Below, in pieces: positions 1,863 to 44,286 of a stretch of DNA of 44,859 bases (position 1 is the stretch's first letter; each line of letters begins with the position of its first letter). A program made the position numbers and the translations under genes. Source of the DNA: a phage. The notes below the pieces were generated by a model. The model saw only the letters and a list, made by a program, of their open reading frames with translations. It was not told the DNA's origin and made no database searches. The stretch lies in sequence record PX290280.1. One strand, 5' to 3'.

Positions 1863-1952
1863 GTAGTCGCTTCTTAGTCTGGATAGGTTAAACCTAGGGT
1901 ATTCTTTTGAGTGCCCTATAATGTAACCTAACTAACTAATGAGGATTAAATC

Positions 1953-2282
1953 ATGGAACGCAACGCTAACGCTTACTACAACCTTCTGGCTGCAACTGTT
2001 GAAGCATTCAACGAGCGCATCAAGCACGATGAGATTCGTGAAGATGATGATTACTCTGATGCACTGCATGAGGTTGTAGATAGCATGGTGCCAGTTTATT
2101 ACAGCGAAATCTTTACTGTGATGGCTGCTGATGGCATTGATGTTGATTTTGAAGATGCTGGTTTGATTCCTGATACGAAGGATGTAACCAAGATTCTACA
2201 AGCTCGCATCTATGAAGCTCTTTATAATGATGTACCAAATGACAGCGATGTAGTTTGGTATGAAGGCGAAGAAGAGGAATAA
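1953..2282 (+). CDS. ocr: Ocr-like DNA-mimic anti-restriction protein (T7 gene 0.3 homolog)
   Basis: 109-aa highly acidic protein. The segment [43 protein letters not shown] aligns with T7 Ocr as recalled ([43 protein letters not shown]). GAGGA ribosome-binding site. Confidence 0.8.
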   Translation: [109 protein letters not shown]

Positions 2283-2286
2283 TAAG

Positions 2287-2400
2287 ATGGAAAGGCAATA
2301 TAACTTCATCTTCTCAGACGGTGTAACCCTGAAATGTTCCTTACGATTTGCGCAGATTCGTGAGGAAGTGCTAGGTACTACATACAAACTATTTAGCTGA
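2287..2400 (+). CDS. Hypothetical small protein (37 aa)
   Basis: GAGGAA ribosome-binding site directly after the ocr stop codon. Confidence 0.4.
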   Translation: MERQYNFIFSDGVTLKCSLRFAQIREEVLGTTYKLFS

Positions 2401-2415
2401 CACTATAAGAGAAGG
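2391..2415 (+). promoter_or_regulatory. Degenerate phage-promoter-like sequence (ATTTAGCTGACACTATAAGAGAAGG)
   Basis: Matches the phage promoter core but has an extra A before the initiating G; upstream of the RNAP gene. Confidence 0.35.
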
Positions 2416-2476
2416 CTTAACAAGGCGTTGCTACGGTAGCGCCTGATTAAACTTTCACTTACTAGGAGTTGAGATT

Positions 2477-2662
2477 ATGAAAACCTTGATTGGATGCTTC
2501 TTGTTGGCTTCTCTTGCTCTGGCATTTACCGCTAAAGCTGGTTATGACGCTTATAAAGTAGAACAAGCCCAGCAAGACTGGGCCAAAAAGTTCAACTTGT
2601 GCAGCAAGAGCAACACCTACGAGTACTGCAACAAAACACTAAGACACTTATGGAAAGAGTAA
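2477..2662 (+). CDS. Small secreted protein (61 aa) with a signal peptide
   Basis: N-terminus MKTLIGCFLLASLALAFTAKA-GYD looks like a Sec signal peptide with an AKA cleavage site; mature part carries two Cys; AGGAG ribosome-binding site. Confidence 0.6.
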   Translation: MKTLIGCFLLASLALAFTAKAGYDAYKVEQAQQDWAKKFNLCSKSNTYEYCNKTLRHLWKE

Positions 2663-2725
2663 CTAGCCTATAGCCTACCTGAGTGGGCTATGTGATATTT
2701 ACTTACACTATATAAGGTGATTACT

Positions 2726-3610
2726 ATGACTACTGAAAACACCCTCGTGTCTGTCCGTGAAGCTGCAACCGCTGAAATCAAGCAACATTTAGACAATATC
2801 GGCACTTCTTACATCAAAGTTGGCGCTTGTCTGAATGAATTACGCGGTGATTTCGAAGGTCAAAAAGACTTTTTAGCTTATGTAGAATCAGAGTTCGGCA
2901 TCAAGAAGGCACAATGCTACAAGCTGATGAGTGTAGCCCGTGTCTTTGAAGGAGACGAACGCTTTAAAGGTGTGGCTATGCGTGTAATGCTGGCGCTTGT
3001 TCCTTTCGCTGATGAAAATATAATCATGGAGAAGGCCGCAGAACTCGCCGCAGCTGGCAAGCTGGACACTAATGCCGTAAACGCCCTGATTGAACCTAAG
3101 AAAGAGATAAAGACTGAAACGGTACAATCTAAGGCTGTGGCGGTAAAACCGCAGGAGAACGCGACTAAGGCCGCAGAATCACAGGAAATGCAAGCGCCGC
3201 AGGTAGTGACACCCGCGAGCGAGCAGGAGGCCGACGAATCAGCACCATGGGAAGAGGAAAGCAAGCCGGAAGCGCCAAAGGTAGCGCCGCTGGATAACAC
3301 GGCTAATACCGAAAACGCCGCTATGGCTAGCCTCTTAGCACAAATTAAGGCACTGACTGAGCAATTACAGGCAGCTAATGACCGCATCGCCTCCTTAAGT
3401 AGCGCACGCGAAAGCAAGAAGGCAGCCGCACCTATGCTGCCGCAATTCAAATCTTCCTGCTTCTATGCTCGCTTAGGTTTAAGCGCTGAGGAGGCAACGA
3501 AGAAAACAGCAGTTAACAAGGCACGCCGCGAACTGGTTAAGCTAGGCTATGGTGAAGGCCATGAAGCATGGCCCTTAATCTCTGAGGCAGTAGAAGAGTT
3601 GACTAAGTAA
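2726..3610 (+). CDS. Early protein with a KfrA/DUF3102-like N-terminal domain and an Ala/Glu/Lys-rich coiled-coil tail
   Basis: ATG 2726 with AAGGTGA ribosome-binding site (the track's GTG at 2717 is less likely). N-terminal FLAYVESEFGIKKAQCYKLMSVARVF resembles a DNA-binding domain; C-terminal half is low-complexity coiled coil. Confidence 0.6.
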   Translation: MTTENTLVSVREAATAEIKQHLDNIGTSYIKVGACLNELRGDFEGQKDFLAYVESEFGIKKAQCYKLMSVARVFEGDERFKGVAMRVMLALVPFADENIIMEKAAELAAAGKLDTNAVNALIEPKKEIKTETVQSKAVAVKPQENATKAAESQEMQAPQVVTPASEQEADESAPWEEESKPEAPKVAPLDNTANTENAAMASLLAQIKALTEQLQAANDRIASLSSARESKKAAAPMLPQFKSSCFYARLGLSAEEATKKTAVNKARRELVKLGYGEGHEAWPLISEAVEELTK

Positions 3611-3673
3611 CCTTATCGGTGGCATCTTCTTAGGTGTCACCTATTAAGGTTTCTTTCACTAGGAGTAAACAAG

Positions 3674-6301
3674 ATGCAAGACCTACACGCTATTCAACTT
3701 CAACTTGAAGAAGAAATGTTTAACGGCGGTATCCGTCGCTTTGAAGCGGACCAACAACGCCAGATTGCATCCGGTAATGAATCAGACACGGCATGGAATC
3801 GCCGCTTATTGTCCGAACTAATCGCACCTATGGCGGAAGGTATTCAGGCTTACAAGGAAGAATACGAAGGCAAGAGAGGTCGTGCACCACGTGCATTAGC
3901 TTTCATTAACTGCGTAGGAAACGAAGTGGCAGCATATATCACCATGAAAATCGTTATGGATATGCTGAATACAGACGTTACCTTACAAGCAATCGCTATG
4001 AATGTAGCGGACCGCATCGAAGACCAAGTACGTTTTAGCAAGCTGGAAGGTCACGCAGCTAAGTACTTTGAGAAAGTGAAGAAGTCACTTAAGGCTAGCA
4101 AGACTAAATCTTATCGTCATGCGCACAACGTAGCGGTAGTAGCTGAGAAATCTGTTGCTGACCGTGACGCGGATTTCTCCCGTTGGGAGGCATGGCCTAA
4201 AGACACCTTGCTGCAAATCGGTATGACCTTGCTCGAAATATTGGAGAATAGTGTATTCTTCAATGGTCAACCTGTCTTCCTTCGTACCTTGCGCACTAAC
4301 GGCGGAAAGCATGGTGTTTACTATTTACAGACCAGTGAACATGTTGGAGAGTGGATAACTGCATTTAAGGAACATGTAGCGCAGCTCAGCCCTGCCTATG
4401 CACCTTGCGTTATACCTCCCCGCCCTTGGGTATCACCTTTTAACGGTGGGTTTCATACTGAGAAAGTAGCAAGCCGTATTCGTCTGGTAAAAGGCAATCG
4501 TGAGCACGTCCGCAAGCTGACCAAAAAGCAAATGCCAGCCGTTTATAAGGCTGTTAACGCTTTGCAGGCAACTAAGTGGCAGGTTAATAAAGAGGTTTTA
4601 CAGGTTGTGGAGGACGTTATACGTCTAGACCTCGGCTATGGTGTGCCTTCCTTTAAACCACTCATCGACCGTGAGAACAAGCCAGCTAATCCAGTGCCGT
4701 TAGAGTTCCAGCACCTGCGAGGCCGTGAACTTAAAGAGATGCTAACGCCGGAACAATGGCAAGCCTTCATCAACTGGAAAGGCGAATGTACCAAGCTGTA
4801 TACCGCTGAAACTAAGCGCGGCAGCAAATCGGCGGCGACCGTCCGCATGGTTGGGCAGGCACGTAAATACAGCCAGTTTGACGCCATCTACTTCGTGTAT
4901 GCACTGGACAGCCGCAGCCGCGTCTACGCGCAATCTAGCACGCTCTCTCCGCAATCAAACGACTTAGGCAAGGCATTGCTCCGTTTTACCGAAGGGCAGC
5001 GTCTTGATAGCGCTGAGGCGCTTAAGTGGTTTTTGGTGAACGGGGCTAATAACTGGGGTTGGGATAAGAAAACTTTTGACGTGCGCACCGCTAACGTGCT
5101 GGATAGTGAATTTCAAGACATGTGCCGCGACATTGCAGCGGATCCGCTTACCTTCACTCAATGGGTAAATGCCGACTCCCCTTACGGCTTCCTTGCATGG
5201 TGCTTTGAATATGCGCGTTATCTGGATGCACTGGATGAAGGCACGCAAGACCAATTCATGACGCACCTCCCAGTCCATCAAGATGGTAGTTGCTCTGGTA
5301 TCCAGCACTATAGCGCGATGTTACGCGATGCAGTAGGTGCGAAAGCGGTAAACCTTAAGCCCTCTGACTCCCCTCAAGATATTTATGGTGCCGTTGCGCA
5401 GGTAGTAATTCAGAAGAATTATGCATACATGAATGCAGAGGATGCGGAAACCTTCACTTCTGGCAGCGTGACTTTAACAGGTGCGGAACTGCGTAGCATG
5501 GCTAGTGCGTGGGATATGATAGGAATCACTCGCGGCCTGACCAAAAAGCCCGTAATGACACTACCTTATGGCAGCACACGTCTAACCTGCCGTGAGTCAG
5601 TGATTGATTATATCGTTGATTTAGAAGAAAAAGAGGCCCAACGGGCTATTGCGGAAGGGCGTACCGCCAACCCTGTACATCCTTTTGATAATGACCGTAA
5701 GGACAGCCTGACACCTAGCGCAGCTTATAACTATATGACAGCTTTAATCTGGCCTTCTATTTCGGAAGTGGTTAAAGCTCCTATAGTGGCAATGAAAATG
5801 ATTCGTCAGCTTGCACGTTTCGCAGCTAAAAGAAACGAAGGCTTAGAATATCCCTTACCAACTGGCTTCATCTTGCAACAAAAGATAATGGCTACCGATA
5901 TGCTCCGCGTATCCACTTGCTTGATGGGTGAAATCAAGATGAGTCTCCAGATTGAAACAGATGTAGTTGATGAAACGGCAATGATGGGTGCGGCTGCTCC
6001 TAACTTCGTCCATGGTCACGATGCTAGCCACCTGATTCTGACTGTATGTGACCTAGTGGATAAAGGTATTACATCCATTGCAGTCATCCATGATTCTTTC
6101 GGTACTCATGCAGGACGTACCGCAGACCTGCGGGATAGCTTAAGGGAAGAAATGGTTAAGATGTATCAAAACCATAATGCCCTGCAAAACCTGCTAGATG
6201 TGCACGAAGAGCGTTGGTTAGTAGACACCGGAATCCAAGTACCAGAGCAAGGAGAGTTTGACCTTAACGAAATCTTAGTTTCAGACTATTGTTTCGCATA
6301 A
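3674..6301 (+). CDS. Single-subunit DNA-directed RNA polymerase (SP6-type)
   Basis: 875 aa; N-terminus [32 protein letters not shown] and much of the body match SP6 RNA polymerase as recalled; T7-RNAP-family segments [18 protein letters not shown] and IHDSFGTHA are present. Confidence 0.95.
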
Positions 6302-6392: not shown

Positions 6393-6415
6393 ATTTACCG
6401 GACACTATAGGATAG
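6393..6415 (+). promoter_or_regulatory. Phage RNAP promoter (ATTTACCGGACACTATAGGATAG)
   Basis: Matches the 23-nt consensus shared by 12 sites. Confidence 0.7.
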
Positions 6416-6586: not shown

Positions 6587-6609
6587 ATTTACCGGACAGT
6601 ATAGATAAG
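6587..6609 (+). promoter_or_regulatory. Phage RNAP promoter variant (ATTTACCGGACAGTATAGATAAG)
   Basis: Consensus match with a C-to-G change in the core (GACAGTATAG). Confidence 0.55.
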
Positions 6610-6768: not shown

Positions 6769-8757
6769 ATGGCTATTATTCAGAATGTACCGTGTCCTGC
6801 CTGTCAAAAGAATGGACATGATATTACTGGCAACCATCTTATGATATTTGAGGATGGCGCTGGTTACTGTAACCGTGGTCACTTCCATGATAACGGCAAG
6901 CCTTATTACCATAAGCCAGAGGGTGGCATCGAGATAACCGAATTACCTATTACTGGCAATATCAAATATACACCTTCTCAGTTTAAAGAGATGGAGAAGG
7001 AAGGGAAGATTAGCGACCCTAAGCTACGCGCCATCGCACTTGGTGGTATGCGTATGAAAGACCGTTGGGAGGTCATGAATGAGCAAGAAAGGGCAGAACA
7101 AGAAGCAGAGTGGAAACTTGATGTTGAATGGTTCCTCACGCTTAAGCGTAAGAACCTTGTATCCCGTCACATTCGAGGTGACATCGCAGCAATGTACGAT
7201 GTGCGCGTTGGACACGATGAAGAGGGAAGAGTCAACCGTCACTATTATCCACGATATGAAAAGGGTGTGCTTGTTGGAGCAAAATGCCGGACGTTGCCGA
7301 AGGATTTTAAGTTCGGACACCTAGGTAAACTCTTTGGTATGCAAGACCTTTTCGGTATGAACACTTTGTCTCACGTGTTAGACAAGGGAAGACGAAAGGA
7401 TTGCTTGCTTATTGTGGGCGGCGAACTGGATGCACTAGCAGCACAGCAGATGCTCCTTGATTCTGCCAAGGGTACTAAGTGGGAAGGCCAGCCTTACCAT
7501 GTATGGTCTGTCAATAAAGGTGAGTCTTGCCTTGAAGAGATAGTGCAGAGCCGTGAGCATATCGCCCAATTCAAGAAGATTATATGGGGTTTTGATGGAG
7601 ATGAGGTGGGGCAGAAGCAGAACCAACAAGCTGCTCGCCTGTTTCCTGGCAAATCCTACATCCTCGAATACCCCTCTGGTTGCAAAGATGCTAACAAGGC
7701 ATTGATGGCTGGCAAGGCTAAAGAATTTGTGGATGCTTGGTTTAATGCAAAGTCATCTGATGAAGTCTTTGGTAGCCAGATTAAATCTATCGCATCTCAA
7801 AGGGATAAGCTCAAGGCTGCACGTCCAGAGCAAGGACTATCATGGCCTTGGCCTAAGCTGAACAAGGTAACGCTGGGTATTCGTAAGAACCAGCTTATCA
7901 TTATAGGTGCAGGCTCTGGTGTAGGTAAGACTGAGTTCCTTCGTGAAGTTGTTAAGCACCTCATTGAAGAACACGGTGAATCTGTAGGCATCATTTCTAC
8001 AGAAGACCCAATGGTCAAGGTGTCCCGTGCTTTTATCGGTAAGTGGATTGATAAGCGTATTGAGTTACCACCAACCAACGACCCGAAAGAAGACGGATAC
8101 CGTGAGGTGTTCGATTACACCGAGGAAGAAGCTAACGCTGCCATTGATTATGTGGCTGATACAGGAAAGCTATTTGTGGCTGACCTAGAAGGCGACTATT
8201 CGATGGAGAAGGTAGAGCAAACTTGCCTAGAGTTTGAGGCTATGGGAATTTCTAATATCATCATTGATAACTTAACGGGGATTAAATTAGATGAGCGTGC
8301 TTTTGGTGGGAAGGTTGGTGCACTTGATGAATGCGTCAAACGAATTGGTACTATCAAAGACCGACATGCGGTTACGATTTTCCTTGTCTCTCACCTTACA
8401 CGTCCTCCGGCAAACCGTACCCAACACGAAGAAGGTGGCGAAGTTATCCTTTCTGACTTCCGAGGCTCAGGCGCTATCGGATTCTGGGCATCTTACGCCT
8501 TGGGGATTGAGCGTAATACAAGAGCTGAAACGCTTGATGAAAGGACTACCACGTACATCTCTTGTGTCAAAGACCGCGACCAAGGTATCTACACAGGAAC
8601 CAAAGTCATGCTCAAGGGTGACATTCAGACCGGACGCTTGAGAGAACCACAAGCTAGAACAAGGTCGTTTGATACAGGCGAAGCAAGGCAACAAGAAGTA
8701 CCGGATTTACCGGACACTATAGAAGAGACAACATTTGACGATGAACAGGAGTTTTAA
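6769..8757 (+). CDS. DNA primase/helicase (T7 gp4-like)
   Basis: N-terminal zinc ribbon CPACQ...CNRGH, DnaB-type Walker A GAGSGVGKTE, and an acidic C-terminal tail ending DDEQEF. Confidence 0.9.
   Translation: MAIIQNVPCPACQKNGHDITGNHLMIFEDGAGYCNRGHFHDNGKPYYHKPEGGIEITELPITGNIKYTPSQFKEMEKEGKISDPKLRAIALGGMRMKDRWEVMNEQERAEQEAEWKLDVEWFLTLKRKNLVSRHIRGDIAAMYDVRVGHDEEGRVNRHYYPRYEKGVLVGAKCRTLPKDFKFGHLGKLFGMQDLFGMNTLSHVLDKGRRKDCLLIVGGELDALAAQQMLLDSAKGTKWEGQPYHVWSVNKGESCLEEIVQSREHIAQFKKIIWGFDGDEVGQKQNQQAARLFPGKSYILEYPSGCKDANKALMAGKAKEFVDAWFNAKSSDEVFGSQIKSIASQRDKLKAARPEQGLSWPWPKLNKVTLGIRKNQLIIIGAGSGVGKTEFLREVVKHLIEEHGESVGIISTEDPMVKVSRAFIGKWIDKRIELPPTNDPKEDGYREVFDYTEEEANAAIDYVADTGKLFVADLEGDYSMEKVEQTCLEFEAMGISNIIIDNLTGIKLDERAFGGKVGALDECVKRIGTIKDRHAVTIFLVSHLTRPPANRTQHEEGGEVILSDFRGSGAIGFWASYALGIERNTRAETLDERTTTYISCVKDRDQGIYTGTKVMLKGDIQTGRLREPQARTRSFDTGEARQQEVPDLPDTIEETTFDDEQEF
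8705..8727 (+). promoter_or_regulatory. Phage RNAP promoter inside the 3' end of the primase/helicase gene
   Basis: ATTTACCGGACACTATAGAAGAG. Confidence 0.7.
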
Positions 8758-8918
8758 TGGAAATTATTAAACCAGTATTGAATATCGGTATTGAAATCCT
8801 ATTCATGCTTGTGATCGCAGATTATGCTGCACGATATGGATTCAAGAAAGCTGTGAAACTTATCGTTGCATCTGGTTTTATGATGTCAATGTTCTTTATT
8901 GTAACACGCCTTATCTAG
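8757..8918 (+). CDS. Small membrane protein (53 aa, two predicted transmembrane segments)
   Basis: ATG overlaps the primase stop (TAATG); hydrophobic sequence. Confidence 0.45.
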   Translation: MEIIKPVLNIGIEILFMLVIADYAARYGFKKAVKLIVASGFMMSMFFIVTRLI

Positions 8919-10273: not shown

Positions 10274-10478
10274 ATTAAGCAAGGTTTGCTCTTGCGGTAA
10301 AGGTTATCGCAGTCGTATTGATGGCAAGTGTGAAAACTGCCGCACTAAAAGGCAGAAAGATCACAATAATAAATACCACATGCACTTAATGTATCTTGAC
10401 CTTAAAGCTACACCTGATTCTGTATTAGGTAAAAGTCTTAGAGTTAAATACTTTGGAGCAATCTATGAAATCAATTGA
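10260..10478 (+). CDS. Small zinc-finger-like protein (about 72 aa)
   Basis: CSCGKG...CENC motif; GAGG upstream; start taken at ATG 10260 rather than the track's 10233. Confidence 0.5.
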   Translation: MKTIKLSKVCSCGKGYRSRIDGKCENCRTKRQKDHNNKYHMHLMYLDLKATPDSVLGKSLRVKYFGAIYEIN

Positions 10479-12884
10479 TTGGAAGAAGGAAGCAGAAGGT
10501 CGTATCTTAGTAATGGATGCGGAAGCTAAAGGTCTGCTGGATACTATCCGCTACGGTCATCGTGAAGATGTACACATCATTTGCTGCATGGATTTGCTTA
10601 CTACAGAGGAGTTCTTATTCTTTGACCCATATGAGATGCGTGACCCTGAAGCAAGGGAACACCTGAAAGAGTGGGAAGGCCATCAAGATGGAACCTTGGT
10701 TGATGGTGTTAACTTCCTAAAGCACTGTGAAGCCATCGTCTCACAGAACTTCCTAGGGTACGACGGCCTTCTATTTGAGAAAGCATTCCCTGATATCTGG
10801 AAAGGCTTTAACTATACCGAGAGACGCGGCAAGGGCAGACTCCGCGCTGACCTGTGTCCGGTACGCGTCATGGATACGCTGGTCATGAGTCGCCTGTTAA
10901 ACCCCGATAGACGCCTTCCTCCGCAAGCATATGCCAAAGGTATGGGTAACGTCGCCCCTCACTCAATTGAGGCGCACGGCATCCGTATAGGCCGCTATAA
11001 ACCGGAGAACGAGGACTGGTCTAAACTAACTGACCACATGGTTCACCGTGTACGCGAGGACGTGGCGATAGGCCGTGACCTATTCCTCTGGCTATTTAAC
11101 GGAGAATGGACGGAGCACAAACGCCGTGGCGTGAATAAACGCACTGGCCTAGGTATTGAGACAGCCTTCCACATGGAGTCCATTGTGGCGCTGGAGATGA
11201 GCCGTCAGGCCGAGCGTGGATTCCGTCTGGATATAGATAAAGCATTAGCACGATGCGAAGAACTGGACGCTAAGATTGATGAGACAGTCGCAGCGTTCCG
11301 CCCTCACATGCCTATGCGTATCAAGTCTAAACCTTTTAAACCGGAAGAAAAGAATGAAGTATGCCAACGCGCAAATGAGTATGGAGCTAGCAACAATATA
11401 CCTACTGTCCTTGACCCCTCACACTTTCTTCATGCCGAGAGACGAGGAGATCGCAAGACAGTATGGAGTGTCACTACTAAGTCTGGTGATTGGTCGGCTA
11501 GTGTCAAGAAAGACTTTCCTCACCTTAGAGGAAACCGTAATGACACGCCAAGTATCAAGTGGATTGGCGCTTACTCGCCTGTTACTTTCGAAGAGATTCC
11601 CTTGGGTAACAGGGATACAGTTAAGCAAGTGCTCTATGATTATGGATGGAAAGGTGTTGAATTTAACGATACCGAGCAAGCGCATCTGGATGAGTATGGA
11701 GTGTTACCCAAACCTTGGAGTGGGAAGATAAATGAAAAGTCCCTTACTTTATGGCAAGAGAGAGCCGCACGTGAAGGTAAAACAGTCCCTGATTGGTGCT
11801 TGGGTATCGCTGCATGGTACATACTCGTATCCCGTCGTGGTACGATCCTTAACCGTGGTGACGTTGAAGCCTTCGACCAGAAGGGGGTGTGGCCTTCGCA
11901 AGCTGGTGTACGAAAGTGTCGCGGCCTTGTACCTGTAGCATTTAACAAGGAGTTAGGAATCAATGCGCAGCAATACTATGAGAGGTATGGGTGTTGGCCT
12001 ACGTCTGACAAGGATGACGGAGAGTGGCGTGTTCCGGCTGTGATGGTGCTGGTCTTGAACTACGTGTACTATCTCACTTCATGAATGACCCTGAGTATCA
12101 AGATATTGTACTGCATGGTGATATACATACTCATAACCAGATGAAGGCTGGTCTTCCCAAGCGTGATATGGCGAAGACATTTATATATGCCTTCTTATAT
12201 GGGTCTGGTATAGCTAACCTTGCAGCAGTATGCGGTGTTACTGAGGAAGAAATGAAGGAAGTTGTGGCAAGATTTGAGATTGAACTACCTTCCCTTGCAC
12301 GTCTTCGTGAGAATGTTATCGCACAAGGTAACAAGTTTGGCTATCTACAAGCACCTGATGGGCATTGGGGTCGCATCCGTATGTCTGGTGGTGAACTTAA
12401 AGAGCACACTATGCTTAACGTACTACTCCAGATGACTGGCTCTCTGTGTATGAAATACGCATTGGTCAGAGCGTTTGCAGTGATGCGCAAGGAGGGTGTG
12501 GCTCTAGATAGCATGGGTAACCCTTGCGGTGTAGCTAACGTGCACGATGAAATCCAGATGGAAGTACCTGAAGATGAGGTCTTGTATCTCAACTACGACT
12601 TGCCTTTCACCGTAGAAGGGTTCGAAACAGAGAAGGCTGCTGTGAAAGCAGTGTTCGATGCAGAGGAGAAACGTGTTCATGTGGATTCTGAAGGACGTAT
12701 GTGGTCTGCTGCAAATCTCGTTAGCGTTGATGCTGATGCTGGTGTACTTCATTGCCAGCGTCGTTATCACCGTGCAGGGCATATCATTGCCGATGCAATG
12801 ACTTGGGCTGGTCATTATTTGAAGATGCGTTGTCCGATGGCAGGTGAGTATAAGATTGGTGCAAGCTGGAAGGAAACACACTGA
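10465..12884 (+). CDS. DNA polymerase (family A, T7 gp5-like), interrupted by an apparent -1 frameshift near 12042
   Basis: The first frame reaches ...GEWRVPAV and stops at 12084. The next frame carries motif A DGAGLELRVLSHFM, motif B KTFIYAFLYGSG and motif C VHDEIQ, matching T7 DNAP as recalled. Re-reading G12042 joins them into one polypeptide. Confidence 0.85.
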
Positions 12885-13000
12885 TGGACAGGTTTGATGT
12901 TGTTTGCCTATTCTCTATCTTCTTTCTTATATTCCTTATGCTTGCTTGCTATGGAAGTATACGATTAGATATACCTGATGAAGAGGAGGGTTACGATTGA
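12884..13000 (+). CDS. Small hydrophobic peptide (38 aa)
   Basis: ATG overlaps the DNAP stop (TGATG); one predicted transmembrane helix. Confidence 0.4.
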   Translation: MDRFDVVCLFSIFFLIFLMLACYGSIRLDIPDEEEGYD

Positions 13001-13098
13001 TGCAAACTTCTTTTATCATTCTTGGGATCATATTATTTATGGTAGTATTCTGGGCTTTCTCTGGCATTGACCCAGATTGTGATGGTAACTACGACTGA
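13000..13098 (+). CDS. Small hydrophobic peptide (32 aa)
   Basis: ATG overlaps the previous stop (TGATG); one predicted transmembrane helix. Confidence 0.4.
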   Translation: MQTSFIILGIILFMVVFWAFSGIDPDCDGNYD

Positions 13099-28157: not shown

Positions 28158-28879
28158 TGGCTATAGGTTCAGCCGTTATGGCTGGTATGTCTTCTATTGG
28201 TAGCATGTTTGCAGGCAGTGGTGCAGCAGCCGCTGCTGGAGGTGCTGCCGCAGGTGGCGGAGGTTTGCTAGGTTCACTAGGTGGATTCCTAAGTGGCTCT
28301 ACTGCTGGTTTCTCTAATGCTGGCCTTCTTGGTGCTGGCCTTCAAGGGTTAGGATTGATTGGTGATCTATTTGGTGGAAGTGATGAAGCCAAAGCTATGA
28401 AGAAAGCTCAAGAGGAGCAATGGCGGCAGCAACTTATTGCTACACAAGAAGCATACAAAACAGTAGCAGATGCAGAACGCTCTGCTGCTAAACAGTACCA
28501 TGCAGACGCAATAAGCAATCAGGCTTCACTACTGCAGCAGAGAGCACAGGTTGCATTGCTTGCTGGTGCTGCTGGTACTGGTGGCAACTCTGTGTCTTCT
28601 ATGCTGAATGACTTAGCAGCAGAAGGCGGAAGGAACCAGAGTACAATTATTGATAACTATGAGAATCAGAAGATTAATTTCACCAACCAGCTTAAGTCCA
28701 TCCAACGGGGTGGTCAGATGCAGATACGTGAGTTTAAGAAACCTTCTGCCGTGAGCACCTTGGTGCAAGGTATACCAAGTCTGGCATCTGCCTATGTAAC
28801 AGGTAGTAAGTCCGGCATGGCTTTAGGTAAAGCTTTAACTGATTCTCGTACATATTCATCTGGAACAAGAGGTATTTAA
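28157..28879 (+). CDS. Internal virion protein (Gly/Ala-rich)
   Basis: Start overlaps the previous stop; GAAAGGGG-rich N-terminal region. Confidence 0.6.
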   Translation: MAIGSAVMAGMSSIGSMFAGSGAAAAAGGAAAGGGGLLGSLGGFLSGSTAGFSNAGLLGAGLQGLGLIGDLFGGSDEAKAMKKAQEEQWRQQLIATQEAYKTVADAERSAAKQYHADAISNQASLLQQRAQVALLAGAAGTGGNSVSSMLNDLAAEGGRNQSTIIDNYENQKINFTNQLKSIQRGGQMQIREFKKPSAVSTLVQGIPSLASAYVTGSKSGMALGKALTDSRTYSSGTRGI

Positions 28880-31827
28880 TGGCAATTGAGCGACAAGCAG
28901 TACAAGGTCTGCCACAAGTGCAGGCCACTTCTCCTAATGTCATGACCTTTGCACCTCAGCGAGTTGGAGGTGTGGAGGCTGGCGTAGCTTCTACCTCCGG
29001 TAGTCGATTTATCGAAGACCTTATTCGAGCAGCCAGTAGTGTAGCTGATGTAACCACTGGTATCCTTAATCAAAAGATTGAGGAAGATAAGGTTGTTCAA
29101 ATGGAACGGGCATATAACGGATTAATGCCTTCTGAGGATGCAACTCGTGGTGGCGCTCGTGCTAACATGCTTGTCAAAGCTCAACTGCTAGCTAATGATG
29201 AAGCAGCACGAATGAAAGACATGGCTACTCGTTTCCAAGGAACGGATGACGAGTGGACACAACTTATGGTTGACTCTCGTAATGAGATGCAGAATAAGCT
29301 GTTCCAGCAATACCCTGAGTTGCAAGGTGACAAAGATACTATGCGTATGGTCACTAATGTCTTCCAAGAACAGCAGCCTCAGATTTGGGCTACACGAACC
29401 CAGCATAAACTTGACCGTGAACAAGCAGACCGTGAGGATACCTTTGACGGGCGAGTGGCTTCTACTTGGGATTCTAATATTGACCCTGAAGCCTCTGGCT
29501 ATGCTTTACAGGAACGAATCCGCGAAGGTCTTACTCAAGGATTACTACCTGAACAGATGCACAAGAAGTTAGTCCAGCGAGCAATTTCACTTGCACAAGG
29601 CGGTGATGTTAGCATGGCTGAAGCCCTGAAGTATGTGAAGGACGATAAGGGTGTTTCTGTTTATGCTAAGAATCCACAGCTTATCACAGCCATCACTAGT
29701 GGTAATGCAGTTTGGGCTAGGAATAATGTAGCTGATGTAACTCGTATGTCTTTCGAAGTTAAAGAATCCTACCTTGCAGGTGATTTAACTGATGAAGAAT
29801 TGTTGGAACGAGCACAGCACATTAATAATCTGACAGGTAACTCTGTCTTCTCTAATCCAGAGCTAGAGGCACTGATGCGCCAACGGGCTAAGCAGAATGC
29901 AGAGCTAGGTGCAATGCAGGATATGCGACGTGAGCTTTACTCCGACCGCCTGACTGGCTTCCAAGGTAAGACTGATAAAGAGAAGAAGGCTTACATTGAT
30001 GTTATCAAACAGGATAGCCAACTTTATGCAGACCAGCAAATCAAACAACGTGGCTTGGACCCTTACAGTCAAGAGGCTGAAGCTATTCGTGGTGCAGTGG
30101 AAGTGCAGCGCCTGCAATTCATGAACTCCAAAGGCTTAGTGGATGATACCTTTGAGTCTCGTATCAAAGCCATGGAATCTATGCTATCGCCTGAGCACTT
30201 TGCCAAGGGCGAACCACAGGAGTTGATGACTATTCGCCAGTTGTGGGAACAGTTGCCAGAAGAGAGCCGAGGTGTCTTTGGTGACACGGTGAATGGCTAC
30301 ATGGATAACTACAACACTGCACTACAAATGGGAGAGACACCTTTGCAGGCTGCAAGGTTTGCGCGTGAAGCACAGCAGAAATTCTCTCGTACTGAGAAGG
30401 AAACCAAGAAGTTCAACTCAGCTATTGGAGATGCACTGGATGAGGTATCCGGTGCTGGCTGGTTTGATGGTAAAACCGAAGTGTCAGACTTAGGTAAAGC
30501 TATTGCGGAAGAAGAGTTACGAGCTAAGGCCAATATGTTGTGGTCTAGTGGTATGCGTAACATGGATTCTATCAAGAAGGCTTTAATTACTTGGGGCAAT
30601 AAACGCTACACTCAAACAGAGGATGCAAAGACTTCCGGTGGCTATTTCATTAAAGGTGATTACACTTCTGCATCTGATATGCTTATGTCAGTTGGGAAAG
30701 GCGTAAACCCTACCGATGTACCTCTGGCGCTTGGTAGGTATGTAGAAACACAGATGCCAGAATTGAAGAAGGAGCTTCAAGAGTGGGAAACTAAAGATGA
30801 TATATACATTGATTACAATGAACAGAAAGGAACTTTTGTGATTCGTGCTGGTGCAGCAGGTCGCCCTCTTTCTGGAGTAATCCCTGTAACCTCTTTAGAT
30901 ACTGCTTCACTACTAGATTCTGCCTATCAGAAGAAAGTAGAGGAACGAGATAAAGGCGAGTATGTCCACCCGTATCGTACAGATATTGGTGCACAAGAGC
31001 CTATGCCAGCTAAACCAACTGCCAAAGATATTGGTAAATTTGGACTAGCTAACTTCCTCATGTCTTCTGCTTTTGCTTCTGGTGAGAATCTGCCTTCTAA
31101 CTTCGAGATTAACTATCGAGGTAATATGCAACAATTCTATGACAAGCTAGCTATGGATGAGAATAAAGATAAAGTTGGCTTTAATAAGGCAACTGGAACC
31201 TTTACTCCATATAAAGACGCTCGCGGTGAGTCTATCGGTTACGGTCATTTCTTAACGGAAGAAGAGAAGCGAAACGGGTATATTAAGATTGGTGATGAAC
31301 TAGTTCCCTATCGAGGGTCTATGTCTCAGCTTACAGAGAGCAAGGCTCGCGCTCTTATGGAGCAAGATGCTAAGAAGCATGTGCCTCCTACTCGTGACTG
31401 GAAGATTCCGTTTGACCAGATGCATCCTGCACAGCAACGTGGCTTGATGGATTTAACCTACAATTTAGGTAAAGGTGGAATCCAGAACTCACCGCGTGCT
31501 CTTGCTGCATTCAAAGCTGGTAAGCTTACGGAAGGCTTTATCGAAATGCTGGGCACTGCATCAAGTGAAGGTAAGCGTATTCCTGGCCTACTGAAGCGAC
31601 GCGCTGAGGCATACAATATGGCATCTGCTGGTGGTGTGCCTAAGATTACCGAAGTGGAGACTCGTGAAGATGGCTCCATGTGGGTTAGGTTTGGTGGACC
31701 TATGCCAGCAGGTTCTGTCTCGGCATGGACTCATAAACGTATTGGCGCGGATGGTTGGTATCAGGTTTATGAGGCTGCACCTACCAAGTTAGCTAAAGGT
31801 TCTAAGGTAGGTAAAGTTAAGTTGTAG
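28879..31827 (+). CDS. Internal virion protein with a C-terminal lysozyme-like domain
   Basis: 982 aa; the segment YKDARGESIGYGHFLT ... LMDLTYNLGKGG parallels T4 lysozyme (YKDTEGYYTIGIGHLLT ... INMVFQMGETG) as recalled. Confidence 0.7.
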   Translation: MAIERQAVQGLPQVQATSPNVMTFAPQRVGGVEAGVASTSGSRFIEDLIRAASSVADVTTGILNQKIEEDKVVQMERAYNGLMPSEDATRGGARANMLVKAQLLANDEAARMKDMATRFQGTDDEWTQLMVDSRNEMQNKLFQQYPELQGDKDTMRMVTNVFQEQQPQIWATRTQHKLDREQADREDTFDGRVASTWDSNIDPEASGYALQERIREGLTQGLLPEQMHKKLVQRAISLAQGGDVSMAEALKYVKDDKGVSVYAKNPQLITAITSGNAVWARNNVADVTRMSFEVKESYLAGDLTDEELLERAQHINNLTGNSVFSNPELEALMRQRAKQNAELGAMQDMRRELYSDRLTGFQGKTDKEKKAYIDVIKQDSQLYADQQIKQRGLDPYSQEAEAIRGAVEVQRLQFMNSKGLVDDTFESRIKAMESMLSPEHFAKGEPQELMTIRQLWEQLPEESRGVFGDTVNGYMDNYNTALQMGETPLQAARFAREAQQKFSRTEKETKKFNSAIGDALDEVSGAGWFDGKTEVSDLGKAIAEEELRAKANMLWSSGMRNMDSIKKALITWGNKRYTQTEDAKTSGGYFIKGDYTSASDMLMSVGKGVNPTDVPLALGRYVETQMPELKKELQEWETKDDIYIDYNEQKGTFVIRAGAAGRPLSGVIPVTSLDTASLLDSAYQKKVEERDKGEYVHPYRTDIGAQEPMPAKPTAKDIGKFGLANFLMSSAFASGENLPSNFEINYRGNMQQFYDKLAMDENKDKVGFNKATGTFTPYKDARGESIGYGHFLTEEEKRNGYIKIGDELVPYRGSMSQLTESKARALMEQDAKKHVPPTRDWKIPFDQMHPAQQRGLMDLTYNLGKGGIQNSPRALAAFKAGKLTEGFIEMLGTASSEGKRIPGLLKRRAEAYNMASAGGVPKITEVETREDGSMWVRFGGPMPAGSVSAWTHKRIGADGWYQVYEAAPTKLAKGSKVGKVKL

Positions 31828-36171: not shown

Positions 36172-36366
36172 ATGATTAACTCCGAACTGGTAGATAGTGG
36201 TGTGAAGCTTGCGCCACCTGCACTCGTATCAGGTGGGTACTTCCTCGGTATCAGTTGGGATAATTGGGTGTTAATAGCAACATTCATTTATACCGTGTTG
36301 CAAATTGGGGACTGGTTTTATAATAAGTTCAAGATTTGGAGGGAGAAGCGTGAGCGTACACAATAA
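36172..36366 (+). CDS. Holin (T7 gp17.5-like)
   Basis: 64 aa; NWVLIATFIYTVLQIG parallels the T7 holin segment EWFYVAAIAYTVVQIG as recalled; AAGGAGG ribosome-binding site. Confidence 0.7.
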   Translation: MINSELVDSGVKLAPPALVSGGYFLGISWDNWVLIATFIYTVLQIGDWFYNKFKIWREKRERTQ

Positions 36367-40249: not shown

Positions 40250-40326
40250 GGAAGAGTGCCGTTCAAATGAACGGCCTATTACTAGCCAATCTTCATAGGG
40301 AGGGTTGGGAAGTAATAGGAGGTTTA

Positions 40327-41766
40327 ATGGCTAATATTACCAAACCTGTCACAACTGGTATTATACATGAAGGAAGGCTGCTATCAGATTATCTAAAACA
40401 AGCATGGGATAACACCTTACACGCTGATAACTACTTTGTTAGTGTTAAAGACTTTGGCGCTAAGGGTGATGGCTCTGCTGATGATACTGCTGCATTCAAA
40501 GCTGCACTTGCTTCTGGTAAGAATGTATATATCCCTGTAGGTATTTATATAATTAGTGAGACTTTGTATTTTAAGAATCAGGTTATAAAAGGGGGCGGAA
40601 TAGCACCTATTCCGAGTCTTGGTACAATACTTGCAATCTCACACAGTGAGCCTGCATTGAAATATGATGTAAGTGCAGGTTACTCTATGGGTGGTTATTT
40701 AGGTGGGTTCTTCATAGATTATGGAGAGAACAAACCAGATAACTATGCAGGCAGAAAAGGCATAGATCTAGGTGATGCCGACCAACAAGCATGGCCTTCT
40801 CAATTTATCATTGAGAACATCATTGTCCGTGGTGCATACTTTGGTTTGCATGATGAAACAGGAGCATTCCAATACTCAATGCGCAATGTGGTTGCTATCA
40901 ATTGCTGGGAGGGGTTCCGTAAGTTCACTGGAACTACAGTCCTTATGGATACATGCTATGCGCTTAATTGCTATCAAGCATATAGACTGGCTAATGTTTA
41001 TAATATGACAATGAATAACTGCGCCATGGATGGATGCAATGATATCCAAGGTTTACAGGCATTTGATATTACAAACTGCAAAGGTCTTGTGATAAATGGC
41101 ATGTATAGTGAGAATTGTGAGATCCATCATAGTGGTAATGCTTCTATATTTATTCATGGAGATTCTACAGTAACAATCAACGGTTATGCCTTACACTCGC
41201 ATAATGTCGTTGTTGATCCATCATCTGGAAGTGAAGAAGCATACTTTCTTAGAGCGCACGACAGCTCTAGGGTCAATGTAGATGGAATCTTCTTCGGTGA
41301 GAACCTTAAATCTACTAGTATCTTCACCTACCCAATTATGGCCTCTGGTGAGTCTAGAATTAAGCTAGGAACTACAGCACTTAAGGCATGGGTAGGTGCT
41401 AAGGGTGGTGCATCTATGGCTGCTGTTGGAGATAGTCTCATTGAATATGACAATACCGTATTTAACCCATCACTTACTGCAGGTTGGTGCAGTAATAATG
41501 GTGTTGTAGCTAAAGGGACACTAGTTGTAAACACAACATTAGAACCTAATGCAGATTTAAATGCAGGAACTATACAATTAGTTGGTGACTATAAACCAAA
41601 TAAAGGTGATGTTCTTACATATGGTTCTACTTTCGATGTTCAATCATGTGCTATTATTCTGAAGCCACAAGGTGATAATAGTTGTAATGTTTACATTAAA
41701 AACCTAAGTGCAGGTAGTAGTGTTACACTTAACGGAATATTGCACGTACAGGCAATTCGTAGGTAA
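40327..41766 (+). CDS. Tailspike 1: beta-helix polysaccharide depolymerase-like
   Basis: ATG 40327 with AGGAGG ribosome-binding site; VKDFGAKGDGSADDTAAFKAAL signature of pectate-lyase-type beta-helix proteins; no T7 gp17 N-terminal domain. Confidence 0.75.
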   Translation: MANITKPVTTGIIHEGRLLSDYLKQAWDNTLHADNYFVSVKDFGAKGDGSADDTAAFKAALASGKNVYIPVGIYIISETLYFKNQVIKGGGIAPIPSLGTILAISHSEPALKYDVSAGYSMGGYLGGFFIDYGENKPDNYAGRKGIDLGDADQQAWPSQFIIENIIVRGAYFGLHDETGAFQYSMRNVVAINCWEGFRKFTGTTVLMDTCYALNCYQAYRLANVYNMTMNNCAMDGCNDIQGLQAFDITNCKGLVINGMYSENCEIHHSGNASIFIHGDSTVTINGYALHSHNVVVDPSSGSEEAYFLRAHDSSRVNVDGIFFGENLKSTSIFTYPIMASGESRIKLGTTALKAWVGAKGGASMAAVGDSLIEYDNTVFNPSLTAGWCSNNGVVAKGTLVVNTTLEPNADLNAGTIQLVGDYKPNKGDVLTYGSTFDVQSCAIILKPQGDNSCNVYIKNLSAGSSVTLNGILHVQAIRR

Positions 41767-41850: not shown

Positions 41851-44286
41851 ATGATTCAAAGACTAGGTTCTTCATTAGTTAAATTCAAGAGTAAAATAGC
41901 AGGTGCAATCTGGCGTAACTTGGATGACAAGCTCACCGAGGTTGTATCGCTTAAAGATTTTGGAGCCAAAGGTGATGGTAAGACAAACGACCAAGATGCA
42001 GTAAATGCAGCGATGGCTTCAGGTAAGAGAATTGACGGTGCTGGTGCTACTTACAAAGTATCATCTTTACCTGATATGGAGCGATTCTATAACACCCGCT
42101 TCGTATGGGAACGTTTAGCAGGTCAACCTCTTTACTATGTGAGTAAAGGTTTTATCAATGGTGAACTCTATAAAATCACGGACAACCCTTATTACAATGC
42201 TTGGCCTCAAGACAAGGCGTTTGTATATGAGAATGTGATATATGCACCCTACATGGGTAGCGACCGTCATGGTGTTAGTCGTCTGCATGTATCATGGGTT
42301 AAGTCTGGTGACGATGGTCAAACATGGTCTACTCCAGAGTGGTTAACTGATCTGCATCCAGATTACCCTACAGTGAACTATCATTGTATGAGTATGGGTG
42401 TATGTCGCAACCGTCTGTTTGCCATGATTGAAACACGTACTTTAGCCAAGAACGAACTAACCAATTGTGCATTGTGGGATCGTCCTATGTCTCGTAGTCT
42501 GCACCTTACTGGTGGTATCACTAAAGCTGCAAATCAGAGATATGCAACAATCCATGTACCTGATCACGGACTATTCGTGGGCGATTTTGTTAACTTCTCT
42601 AATTCTGCGGTAACAGGTGTATCAGGTGATATGACTGTTGCAACGGTAATAGATAAGGACAACTTCACGGTCCTTACACCTAACCAGCAGACTTCAGATT
42701 TGAATAACGCTGGAAAGAGTTGGCACATGGGTACTTCTTTCCATAAGTCTCCATGGCGTAAGACAGATCTTGGTCTAATCCCTAGTGTCACAGAGGTGCA
42801 TAGCTTTGCTACTATTGATAACAATGGCTTTGTTATGGGCTATCATCAAGGTGATGTAGCTCCACGAGAAGTTGGTCTTTTCTACTTCCCTGATGCTTTC
42901 AATAGCCCATCTAATTATGTTCGTCGTCAGATACCATCTGAGTATGAACCAGATGCGTCAGAGCCATGCATCAAGTACTATGACGGTGTATTATACCTTA
43001 TCACTCGTGGCACTCGTGGTGACAGACTTGGAAGCTCTTTGCATCGTAGTAGAGATATAGGTCAGACTTGGGAGTCACTGAGATTTCCACATAATGTTCA
43101 TCATACTACCTTACCTTTTGCTAAAGTAGGAGATGACCTTATTATGTTTGGTTCAGAACGTGCAGAAAATGAATGGGAAGCAGGTGCACCAGATGATCGT
43201 TACAAGGCATCTTATCCTCGTACCTTCTATGCACGATTGAATGTAAACAATTGGAATGCAGATGATATTGAATGGGTTAACATCACAGACCAAATCTATC
43301 AAGGTGACATTGTGAACTCTAGTGTAGGTGTAGGTTCTGTTGTAGTTAAAGACAGCTACATTTACTATATCTTTGGTGGTGAAAACCATTTCAACCCAAT
43401 GACTTATGGTGACAACAAAGATAAAGACCCATTTAAAGGTCATGGACACCCTACTGATATATACTGCTATAAGATGCAGATTGCAAATGACAATCGTGTA
43501 TCTCGTAAGTTTACATATGGTGCAACTCCTGGTCAAGCTATACCTACTTTCATGGGTACTGATGGGATACGAAATATCCCTGCACCTTTGTATTTCTCAG
43601 ATAACATTGTTACAGAGGATACTAAAGTTGGACACTTAACAATTAAAGCAAGCACAAGTTCCAATATACGATCTGAAGCGCAGATGGAAGGTGAATATGG
43701 CTTTATTGGCAAGTCTGTTCCAAAGGATAACCCAACTGGTCAACGTTTGATTATTTGTGGTGGAGAAGCGACTTCGTCCTCTTCAGGTGCACAGATAACT
43801 TTGCACGGCTCTAATTCAAGTAATGCTAATCGTATCACTTATAACGGAAATGAGCACCTATTCCAAGGTGCACCAATCATGCCTGCTGTAGATAACCAGT
43901 TTGCTGCTGGTGGACCTAGTAACCGATTCACTACCATATACCTAGGTAGTGACCCTGTTACCACTTCAGATGCTGAACACAAGTACGGTATCTCTAGTAT
44001 TAATACCAAGGTGTTAAAGGCTTGGAGTAGAGTTGGTTTTAAACAGTATGGTTTGAATAGTGAAGCAGAGAGAAGTCTTGATAGCATACACTTCGGTGTC
44101 TTGGCTCAGGATATTGTAGCTGCTTTTGAAGCTGAAGGGTTAGATGCCATTAAGTATGGAATTATGTCATTCGAAGAAGGTAGGTACGGTGTGAGGTATA
44201 GTGAAGTTCTAATCCTAGAGGCTGCCTACACTCGCCATCGTCTTGATAAATTAGAGGAGATGTATGCCGCTAATAAAATCAGTTAA
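41851..44286 (+). CDS. Tailspike 2: endosialidase-like, with a C-terminal intramolecular chaperone domain
   Basis: 811 aa; two sialidase Asp-boxes SGDDGQTW and SRDIGQTW; C-terminal about 105 aa with an S-D junction typical of self-cleaving chaperone domains. Confidence 0.75.
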   Translation: MIQRLGSSLVKFKSKIAGAIWRNLDDKLTEVVSLKDFGAKGDGKTNDQDAVNAAMASGKRIDGAGATYKVSSLPDMERFYNTRFVWERLAGQPLYYVSKGFINGELYKITDNPYYNAWPQDKAFVYENVIYAPYMGSDRHGVSRLHVSWVKSGDDGQTWSTPEWLTDLHPDYPTVNYHCMSMGVCRNRLFAMIETRTLAKNELTNCALWDRPMSRSLHLTGGITKAANQRYATIHVPDHGLFVGDFVNFSNSAVTGVSGDMTVATVIDKDNFTVLTPNQQTSDLNNAGKSWHMGTSFHKSPWRKTDLGLIPSVTEVHSFATIDNNGFVMGYHQGDVAPREVGLFYFPDAFNSPSNYVRRQIPSEYEPDASEPCIKYYDGVLYLITRGTRGDRLGSSLHRSRDIGQTWESLRFPHNVHHTTLPFAKVGDDLIMFGSERAENEWEAGAPDDRYKASYPRTFYARLNVNNWNADDIEWVNITDQIYQGDIVNSSVGVGSVVVKDSYIYYIFGGENHFNPMTYGDNKDKDPFKGHGHPTDIYCYKMQIANDNRVSRKFTYGATPGQAIPTFMGTDGIRNIPAPLYFSDNIVTEDTKVGHLTIKASTSSNIRSEAQMEGEYGFIGKSVPKDNPTGQRLIICGGEATSSSSGAQITLHGSNSSNANRITYNGNEHLFQGAPIMPAVDNQFAAGGPSNRFTTIYLGSDPVTTSDAEHKYGISSINTKVLKAWSRVGFKQYGLNSEAERSLDSIHFGVLAQDIVAAFEAEGLDAIKYGIMSFEEGRYGVRYSEVLILEAAYTRHRLDKLEEMYAANKIS

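Follow-up and report, generated by a model that had tools for sequence, protein, structure and literature searches.

Gene 5 of a K1-5-like Vectrevirus phage: a small accessory gene, predicted to encode an exported peptide, in a swappable slot between genes 4 and 6

Sequence record PX290280.1 (44,859 nucleotides; the whole of this stretch is called the window) represents a complete or near-complete Vectrevirus genome of 44.9 kb, from a K1E/K1-5-like, SP6-related coliphage of the Autographiviridae. We describe here gene 5, a small open reading frame (ORF) which lies between genes 4 and 6, upstream of the gene for a single-subunit RNA polymerase (RNAP) of 875 aa (3674-6301). The region from 1900 to 3700 is 94-99% identical to mutPK1A2, K1-5, K1E and many other phages. 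Both neighbours, gene 4 (2287-2400) and gene 6 (2726-3610), are conserved across SP6-like phages, and the interval between them, for which we use the term slot, is found two genes after the nearby ocr gene. The features of the locus are the following.

2391-2413, plus strand: SP6-type phage RNAP promoter, ATTTAGCTGACACTATA followed by AGAGAA, with +1 at 2408; 23.5 bits with a position weight matrix (PWM)
2414-2453, plus strand: 5' leader stem-loop, with an inner stem at 2423-2444, a UACG-type loop and an outer TTAA/TTAA stem
2464-2468, plus strand: Shine-Dalgarno sequence AGGAG, read from the sequence, with an 8-nt spacer to the ATG
2477-2662, plus strand: gene 5 (K1-5 type, slot allele type A), ATG, 61 codons and TAA, stop codon included
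2477-2539, plus strand: part coding for the predicted signal peptide (residues 1-21, MKTLIGCFLLASLALAFTAKA), with Sec-like features
2540-2659, plus strand: part coding for the predicted mature peptide (40 aa, GYDAYKVEQAQQDWAKKFNLCSKSNTYEYCNKTLRHLWKE), with Cys codons at 2600-2602 and 2627-2629
2585-2589, plus strand: A5 run inside gene 5, of different length among copies
2657-2704, plus strand: 3' hairpin which follows the stop codon and travels with the ORF, inner stem at 2669-2692
2696-2718, plus strand: weak promoter-like sequence (PWM 5.5 bits, core degraded in several relatives) and Shine-Dalgarno sequence of gene 6 (AAGGTG, 2713-2718)
2726-3610, plus strand: gene 6, 294 aa when read from the ATG that relatives use, PHROG 4571, followed by the RNAP gene

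An initial annotation, made from the letters of the sequence, had placed an ORF of 61 aa at 2477-2662, and these coordinates proved exact, on the plus strand and from ATG to TAA. No alternative in-frame start occurs upstream of this ATG, back to the TGA at 2444-2446, and the AGGAG is unpaired in the centroid fold of the leader. The product matches PHROG 20059 over its full length (E = 2.8e-47, residues 1-61 on profile positions 1-61); this is the K1-5 gp5 family, which is without assigned function. It is 100% identical to mutPK1A2 gp07 and 98% identical to the product of K1-5 gene 5 (YP_654103), which has one extra Lys. K1-5, mutPK1A2, ACG-C91 and others have annotated copies that are identical or nearly so, labelled 'hypothetical' in every record, and gene 5 has been in the databases as a hypothetical protein since the K1-5 genome.

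The most divergent copy is that of ULINTec6 and Mt1B1_P10, with 79% amino acid identity. Compared to ULINTec6, differences are found at 25 of 35 synonymous sites (proportion pS 0.71) and at 15 of 148 non-synonymous sites (pN 0.10), which results in an uncorrected pN/pS of 0.14 with saturated pS. The signal part has a pN of 0.085, and the mature part has a pN of 0.11 against a pS of 0.88. Because annotated copies exist in several phages and pN is that far below pS, gene 5 is more than a chance ORF. Purifying selection is strong and acts on the signal and mature parts alike, and gene 5 is a genuine accessory gene of K1-5-like Vectrevirus phages. Some copies differ in the A-run or carry a deletion. 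K1-5 has A8 instead of A5 (L001:~2187-2194), which adds the Lys in frame, a metagenomic copy (P0005) shifts frame at the A-run, and another copy (P0006) has an internal deletion of about 35 nt. These changes could be natural loss-of-function variants, slippage, or assembly errors.

The family is narrowly distributed. A homologue search in 5.8 billion proteins returned six clusters at 90% identity, all from the same family, while an hmmsearch against 1.84 billion representatives found no true remote homologue, only the family itself, P0009 (via its signal peptide, see below) and two spurious repeat proteins. Scans of metagenomes and viral contigs added just three further copies. Searches of the product against Pfam, NCBIfam and PADLOC gave nothing above noise, and phmmer against all PDB chain sequences, a library presumed to include the Spackle chains discussed below, gave no match at E <= 10. 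By these comparisons, gene 5 is an ORFan restricted to Vectrevirus.

The slot was surveyed in 23 related loci and 17 complete genomes. The interval from the promoter and leader to gene 6 is either empty or holds exactly one small ORF, every slot ORF has one hydrophobic segment, and gene 6 is the downstream edge in all surveyed loci. The types are listed below, with their frequency in a collection of 50,697 phage records where this was determined; gene 6 itself occurs in 214 of these records.

Type A: gene 5 of the window; 14 records
Type B: K1E gp5, 75 aa, with an N-terminal transmembrane (TM) segment and then a basic stretch; 32 records; a 65-aa form in L019 (B2) is possibly related
Type C: 51-63 aa, with a signal-peptide-like N-terminus, in SP6 itself and UAB_Phi78; 12 records for the UAB_Phi78-like form
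Type D: 41 aa, with a C-terminal TM segment
Type E: P0009, 88 aa; no match in the collection, just two clusters known
Empty slot: L007, L008, L011 and PDP21P3

For alleles B, B2, C, D and E, no function is assigned in the PHROGs or Pfam matches. Types A and C have in common an MKTLI..CFLL start and a C-terminal H-x-W-x-E, and homology between them was considered; it was rejected as unproven, with hhalign probabilities of no more than 25% (signal peptide) and 0.3% (mature parts).

The slot contents and their surroundings have different histories. Compared to ULINTec6, gene 5 is 78.5% identical while the flanks reach 94-100%. In the closest relative, T145P2, the slot flanks are 98.8% and 97.6% identical, but a type D allele is found inside. 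The alignment with T145P2 breaks at 2482 and resumes at 2657, which puts the swap boundaries within 6 nt of the start and stop codons. The slot alleles are old and their flanks young, and the ORF with its 3' hairpin is a swappable cassette within a fixed slot for expression. At this position, related phages have at least five unrelated small proteins or nothing, and therefore gene 5 is dispensable for the core lytic cycle; this is based on the empty slots and on the frameshifted and deleted copies P0005 and P0006. By all these comparisons, gene 5 behaves as an accessory, dispensable and frequently exchanged cassette.

Type E is a special case of such an exchange. P0009 is encoded on a metagenomic Vectrevirus contig of 43.9 kb (ERZ27298611 k141_1816924, locus L026:4001-4267) and sits at the same position, in the order ocr, slot, gene 6, RNAP. 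Its signal peptide (MKTLIGCFLLASLTLSFSAKA followed by D) is nearly the same as that of gene 5, while the mature domain is unrelated. At the DNA level, homology between L026 and the window extends through the leader and the signal-peptide codons, ends exactly after AKA, and resumes at the stop codon. The same signal peptide thus occurs on a different payload, which argues that export is the conserved property and that the mature part is an exchangeable payload. When metagenome and viral contigs were scanned with the first 21 nt of the ORF for further payloads on this signal peptide, just type A copies were found. The P0009 mature domain is coiled-coil-like and ends in C-x10-C, with two Cys.

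Tiny ORFs with hydrophobic segments also occur in the DNA-metabolism region, at 8757-8918 (53 aa), 12884-13000 (38 aa) and 13000-13098 (32 aa). They belong to PHROGs 15806, 15860 and 4539, all of them without assigned function, and for each ORF there are relatives that have it and relatives that lack it. This patchiness points to other variable sites for small membrane proteins in these genomes.

Expression of the slot was analyzed with a PWM built from 11 strong SP6-type promoters of the window (consensus ATTTACTGGACACTATAGAAGGA). Accepted promoters score 19-37 bits upon leave-one-out evaluation, against a genome background with a mean of -41 and a standard deviation of 10.6. Along the genome, the promoter at 2391-2413 comes first among the phage promoters; it overlaps the final codons of gene 4, and its +1 is an A where the consensus has a G. 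Every one of the 23 related loci retains this promoter, even where the slot is empty. Gene 5 is thus predicted to be transcribed from the first phage-RNAP promoter, together with gene 6 and the RNAP gene, and is presumably also reached by read-through from early promoters of the host RNAP. The earlier assignment to the early region holds for the location, while a purely host-RNAP-dependent early gene is not what we find directly behind a phage-RNAP promoter. A second promoter candidate, at 2696-2718, was rejected as probably non-functional, given its low score and the degraded core in relatives. A further match to the phage promoter was seen at 6587-6609 (ATTTACCGGACAGTATAGATAAG, 20.5 bits), about 190 nt downstream of the promoter at 6393, so that tandem promoters may directly follow the RNAP gene.

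The leader stem-loop has a minimum free energy (MFE) of -23.5 kcal/mol (z = -3.86 versus shuffled sequences). RNAalifold on 11 relatives gave 14 pairs, half of which (7/14) are kept via changes on both sides. The equivalent structures in L001-L022 often have a UNCG-type tetraloop, and they are present even when the slot is empty, which is why the leader probably serves the mRNA of gene 6 and RNAP, in stability or processing. The 3' hairpin is missing together with the ORF in phages with an empty slot. Its MFE is -18.2 (z = -2.75), and RNAalifold on 12 relatives gave 17 pairs, five of them with changes on both sides. As its U-run is poor, it is at most a putative terminator. A search of both hairpins against Rfam gave just a sub-threshold match to a microRNA hairpin and no family.

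A small accessory ORF with its own 3' hairpin between conserved genes, patchy distribution, and recombinational exchange in conserved flanks with sharp boundaries are reminiscent of the lambdoid morons and of the variable early genes of T7-like phages (T7 0.3-0.7). However, promoter and leader of the slot belong to the backbone: they are kept in empty slots and also serve gene 6 and the RNAP gene. Just the 3' hairpin, without a good U-run, travels with the ORF, so that an own promoter as in morons is lacking. In addition, every slot allele appears to be membrane-targeted, and one pair of alleles keeps the signal peptide while swapping the payload.

The gene 5 precursor starts with MKTLIGCFLLASLALAFTAKA, followed by GYDA. 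We assessed this N-terminus by simple home-made measures of charge and hydropathy, with six E. coli signal peptides (OmpA, PhoA, MalE, DsbA, Bla, LamB) as controls. The n-region is M-K, with a net charge of +1 before the hydrophobic run. The uncharged run of the h-region comprises 17 residues with a 9-residue Kyte-Doolittle maximum of 2.59, and both values are inside the range of the controls (14-18 residues, maxima of 1.9-2.9). A-K-A occupies positions -3 to -1 (residues 19-21, with cleavage before residue 22) and is conserved in all copies of types A and E; residues -3 and -1 are small and neutral, and there is no Pro at +1. The signal peptide with an AKA-G site that had been proposed before thus has all the sequence features of a Sec substrate cleaved by signal peptidase I (SPase I) and matches the controls. 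The claim that it stands among otherwise cytoplasmic early genes is likewise borne out, gene 5 being the sole gene upstream of the RNAP gene whose product has a hydrophobic segment. Residues 1-21 very probably represent a Sec signal peptide, with SPase I cleavage between AKA and G releasing a basic, hydrophilic peptide of 40 aa into the periplasm.

This mature peptide would have 4.9 kDa, a pI of 8.7 and a grand average of hydropathy (GRAVY) of -1.28, being strongly hydrophilic and basic. Its two cysteines, C42 and C51, are invariant in the gene 5 family. The label of a two-cysteine protein is therefore appropriate for the mature peptide and does not apply to the precursor, which has a third cysteine (C7) in the signal peptide. 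In an AlphaFold2 (AF2) model with a pLDDT of 62, helices at 22-44 and 48-59 are connected by a turn that is flanked by C42 and C51. A Foldseek search with this model, which is too weak to trust, gave no matches in the PDB.

A role in superinfection exclusion or in modification of the envelope or receptor had been suggested for gene 5, and it is plausible by analogy to T4 Spackle (Sp, gp61.3). Spackle is an early, alpha-helical periplasmic protein with a cleaved export signal and a disulfide bond, which inhibits the tail lysozyme and for which structures have been solved (PMC7677548). Like Spackle, gene 5 is a small, dispensable early gene of a virulent coliphage with a (predicted) cleavable export signal, and its product may be helical with one disulfide, although the model behind this is of low confidence. 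A further parallel is the domain of the T4 lysozyme family on an ejection protein: the internal virion protein (28879-31827, 982 aa) has a PF00959 lysozyme domain at residues 776-910. The endolysin of this phage is a Peptidase_M15 and unrelated to that domain, so that a Spackle-like exclusion is feasible without harm to its own lysis. Because the internal virion protein shows 96-100% identity among the 17 genomes, a single inhibitor could be effective against all relatives. Differences from Spackle are that gene 5 has no sequence or detectable fold similarity and belongs to a different PHROG, and that Spackle is not known from a cassette-swapping slot.

As our best overall explanation we propose, tentatively and at somewhat less than even chance, that gene 5 encodes an exported accessory peptide with exclusion as its candidate role. 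That role itself, as a periplasmic effector of superinfection exclusion that acts like Spackle, is possible but doubtful. The mRNA with its conserved 5' stem-loop would be translated from a good Shine-Dalgarno sequence into the 61-aa precursor. In the periplasm, DsbA would join C42 and C51, stapling a helix-turn-helix, and the peptide would bind a periplasm-exposed part of the ejection machinery of an incoming phage, thus protecting the infected cell. The candidate target would be the T4-type lysozyme domain of the internal virion protein, as gp5 is for Spackle, and the M15-peptidase endolysin of the phage itself would stay unaffected.

Several points weigh against an exclusion role. No homology supports any function or connects the gene 5 product to a known exclusion protein (PHROG, Pfam, NCBIfam, PADLOC, PDB sequences, Foldseek). 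The mature peptide, at 40 aa, is roughly half as large as Spackle (75 aa). The prediction of export and cleavage is based on home-made measures, and the disulfide-stapled hairpin is a guess from a low-confidence AF2 model. The literature that was searched does not describe superinfection exclusion in SP6-like phages, and a full-text search found no functional study of gene 5 or the slot. Finally, alleles B and D are predicted to expose their soluble part to the cytoplasm or to be tail-anchored. With this topology they cannot be periplasmic lysozyme inhibitors, and any function common to the slot must be a different one; slot alleles with different membrane topologies cannot all work alike, and B and D would need another, Imm-like mechanism.

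T4 Imm, P22 SieA and HK97 gp15, which block DNA entry, are small phage membrane proteins that act at the envelope, and they are possible analogues of the TM-anchored alleles B and D. If B and D resemble these proteins, the slot could be an 'exclusion slot' that offers both a periplasmic and a membrane-based solution. No homology to these proteins was found, however, and for type A a soluble periplasmic peptide is predicted rather than an integral membrane protein. T5 Llp and Cor of phi80, N15 and T1 are also small exported phage proteins that prevent superinfection, and Llp is early as well. These are SPase II-processed outer-membrane lipoproteins that block FhuA, whereas the LIGC motif of gene 5 is too close to the N-terminus and the primary receptor of this phage is a capsule.

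The exported peptide might also be directed against the host rather than against a competing phage, an alternative that we hold to be possible but doubtful as well. It would then be an anti-defence or takeover effector which keeps the infection productive via binding to a host protein exposed to the periplasm. Candidate targets are, for example, the periplasmic part of a membrane-anchored defence system or a factor of envelope maintenance or cell division, the slot being an arms-race locus like the neighbouring ocr. Its position two genes after ocr is an anti-defence neighbourhood. The extreme turnover of unrelated alleles, their patchy distribution and the presence of old alleles in young flanks fit as well, since such turnover is typical of counter-defence genes in early regions of the T7 group. 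The slot alleles are all membrane-associated yet differ in topology, which is easier to understand with different membrane targets in the host.

The search for a phage-encoded partner of the slot bears on the same question. All window genes were scanned across the 17 genomes, and none is significantly associated with the slot type; uncorrected for the roughly 60 tests, the strongest associations were those of a 58-aa ORF (p = 0.04) and of the class II holin (p = 0.09). A phage partner that is specific to the slot allele, for instance a holin, is disfavoured by this outcome. It fits a host target better than a phage target, while it is also compatible with a highly conserved phage target. On the other hand, the gene 5 product does not resemble known anti-defence proteins or components of defence systems (NCBIfam, PADLOC), and slot alleles do not correlate with host type in the record metadata.

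A broader proposal, which we consider unlikely, is that SP6-like phages use the slot between genes 4 and 6 as a dedicated 'plug-and-play' site for effectors directed at the envelope, with type A as a 40-residue, disulfide-stapled inhibitor of a periplasmic enzyme, e.g. the ejectosome lysozyme. The backbone-encoded promoter, the stabilising leader and, in one lineage, the signal peptide would stay constant while unrelated payloads are exchanged by recombination. Each lineage would thereby acquire its own periplasmic or membrane weapon against rival phages or membrane-bound defences, and the type A inhibitor would be without relatives among known inhibitors.

It is rather improbable that the N-terminus stays uncleaved and that gene 5 encodes a bitopic inner-membrane protein (N-in, C-out) in which the anchor itself is important, as in the other slot alleles. 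Possible roles of such an anchor are to perturb or mark the inner membrane near the DNA entry site, or to tether the mRNA of gene 5, gene 6 and RNAP by co-translational insertion. One hydrophobic segment is indeed the sole feature common to all alleles A-E, and the signal part is under purifying selection and conserved between types A and E. Cleavage is favoured by the shortness of the uncharged run, with many small residues and then a canonical A-x-A-G. Moreover, constraint is as strong on the mature part as on the signal part, with both Cys invariant, and this indicates that the payload is functional and not a mere spacer.

A regulator of lysis timing, an antiholin-like peptide that binds the periplasmic face of the holin in the manner of T4 RI, is very unlikely. 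T4 RI is similarly small, with an N-terminal export or anchor domain and a periplasmic domain, and a class II holin allele like that of the window (36172-36366) occurs in 6/8 type A genomes and in 2/10 others (Fisher p = 0.054). With about 60 genes tested, this association falls short of significance, and it parallels the shared ancestry of K1-specific phages, with a similar trend for the endosialidase. In addition, gene 5 is located 34-37 kb from both holins, it is expressed from the earliest phage promoter, and its product has no similarity to RI or any antiholin in the PHROG and Pfam searches.

It is hardly credible that the ORF has no protein function, being a chance ORF or a leader ORF which tunes expression of gene 6 and RNAP. 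The slot may be empty and some copies are frameshifted, but divergent copies differ far more at synonymous than at non-synonymous sites, and the Cys and most of the mature residues are invariant. A 63-nt gap with a hairpin before gene 6 leaves no geometry for coupling, and the constraint on both the signal and the mature part rules out the idea of a leader-only ORF. Least probable of all, to the point of being negligible, is a lipoprotein with lipidation at C7 as in T5 Llp or Cor: residues 4-7 (LIGC) fit the lipobox [LVI][ASTVI][GAS]C and are invariant in types A and E, but just six residues precede the Cys with no in-frame start further upstream to the stop at 2444-2446, and the hydrophobic core follows C7 and ends at the SPase I site, while substrates of Lgt and LspA have an n-region and an h-region ahead of the lipobox, with the Cys usually at position 15 or later, so that this reading was rejected.

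A few other observations on the genome are reported here. Public annotations of gene 6 disagree ('late transcription factor VLTF-4', 'andolysin', 'periplasmatic protein'), and a family search, with PHROG 4571, which is without assigned function, as the sole match, supports none of them. The DNA polymerase gene (10465-12884) is present as two ORFs (539 aa and 286 aa) which overlap in different frames, with the junction at about 12036-12054, and about 127 nt (K1-5 residues 531-566) are missing compared to K1-5 and T145P2. This could represent a genuinely split or defective enzyme, the remnant of a mobile element that was lost, or an error of the assembly. The genome has two tailspike genes, at 40267-41766 and 41851-44286. 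The latter is of the K1 endosialidase type that is common to K1-5 and K1E, while the former (499 aa) is shared, among the 17 genomes, just with Mt1B1_P10 and T145P2. This suggests that the adsorption apparatus has dual specificity and differs from the one in K1-5.

The gene 5 product, as far as can be predicted, belongs to a known class of small exported accessory proteins of phages. New aspects are the fixed expression slot with a covarying leader, the swapping of cassettes with boundaries at the start and stop codons, the chimera with a shared signal peptide, the lack of a co-varying phage partner, and a concrete hypothesis for the target. K1E/K1-5-type phages are candidates for therapy and sources of capsule depolymerases, while their early accessory genes are uncharacterised. 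For engineered payloads, including exported ones, the slot offers an obviously safe site and a strong native promoter, and a periplasmic inhibitor of 40 residues, if true, would make an attractive scaffold of minimal size. Should related phages be excluded or weakened by gene 5, this bears on the design of phage cocktails, in which two Vectrevirus phages could interfere with each other. The slot is also a natural experiment, as nearly isogenic phages such as the window phage and T145P2 differ just in the cassette, and phenotypes would be directly assignable to it. If the proposed exclusion role proves true, the SP6 branch of the T7 supergroup would gain its first described function of this kind.

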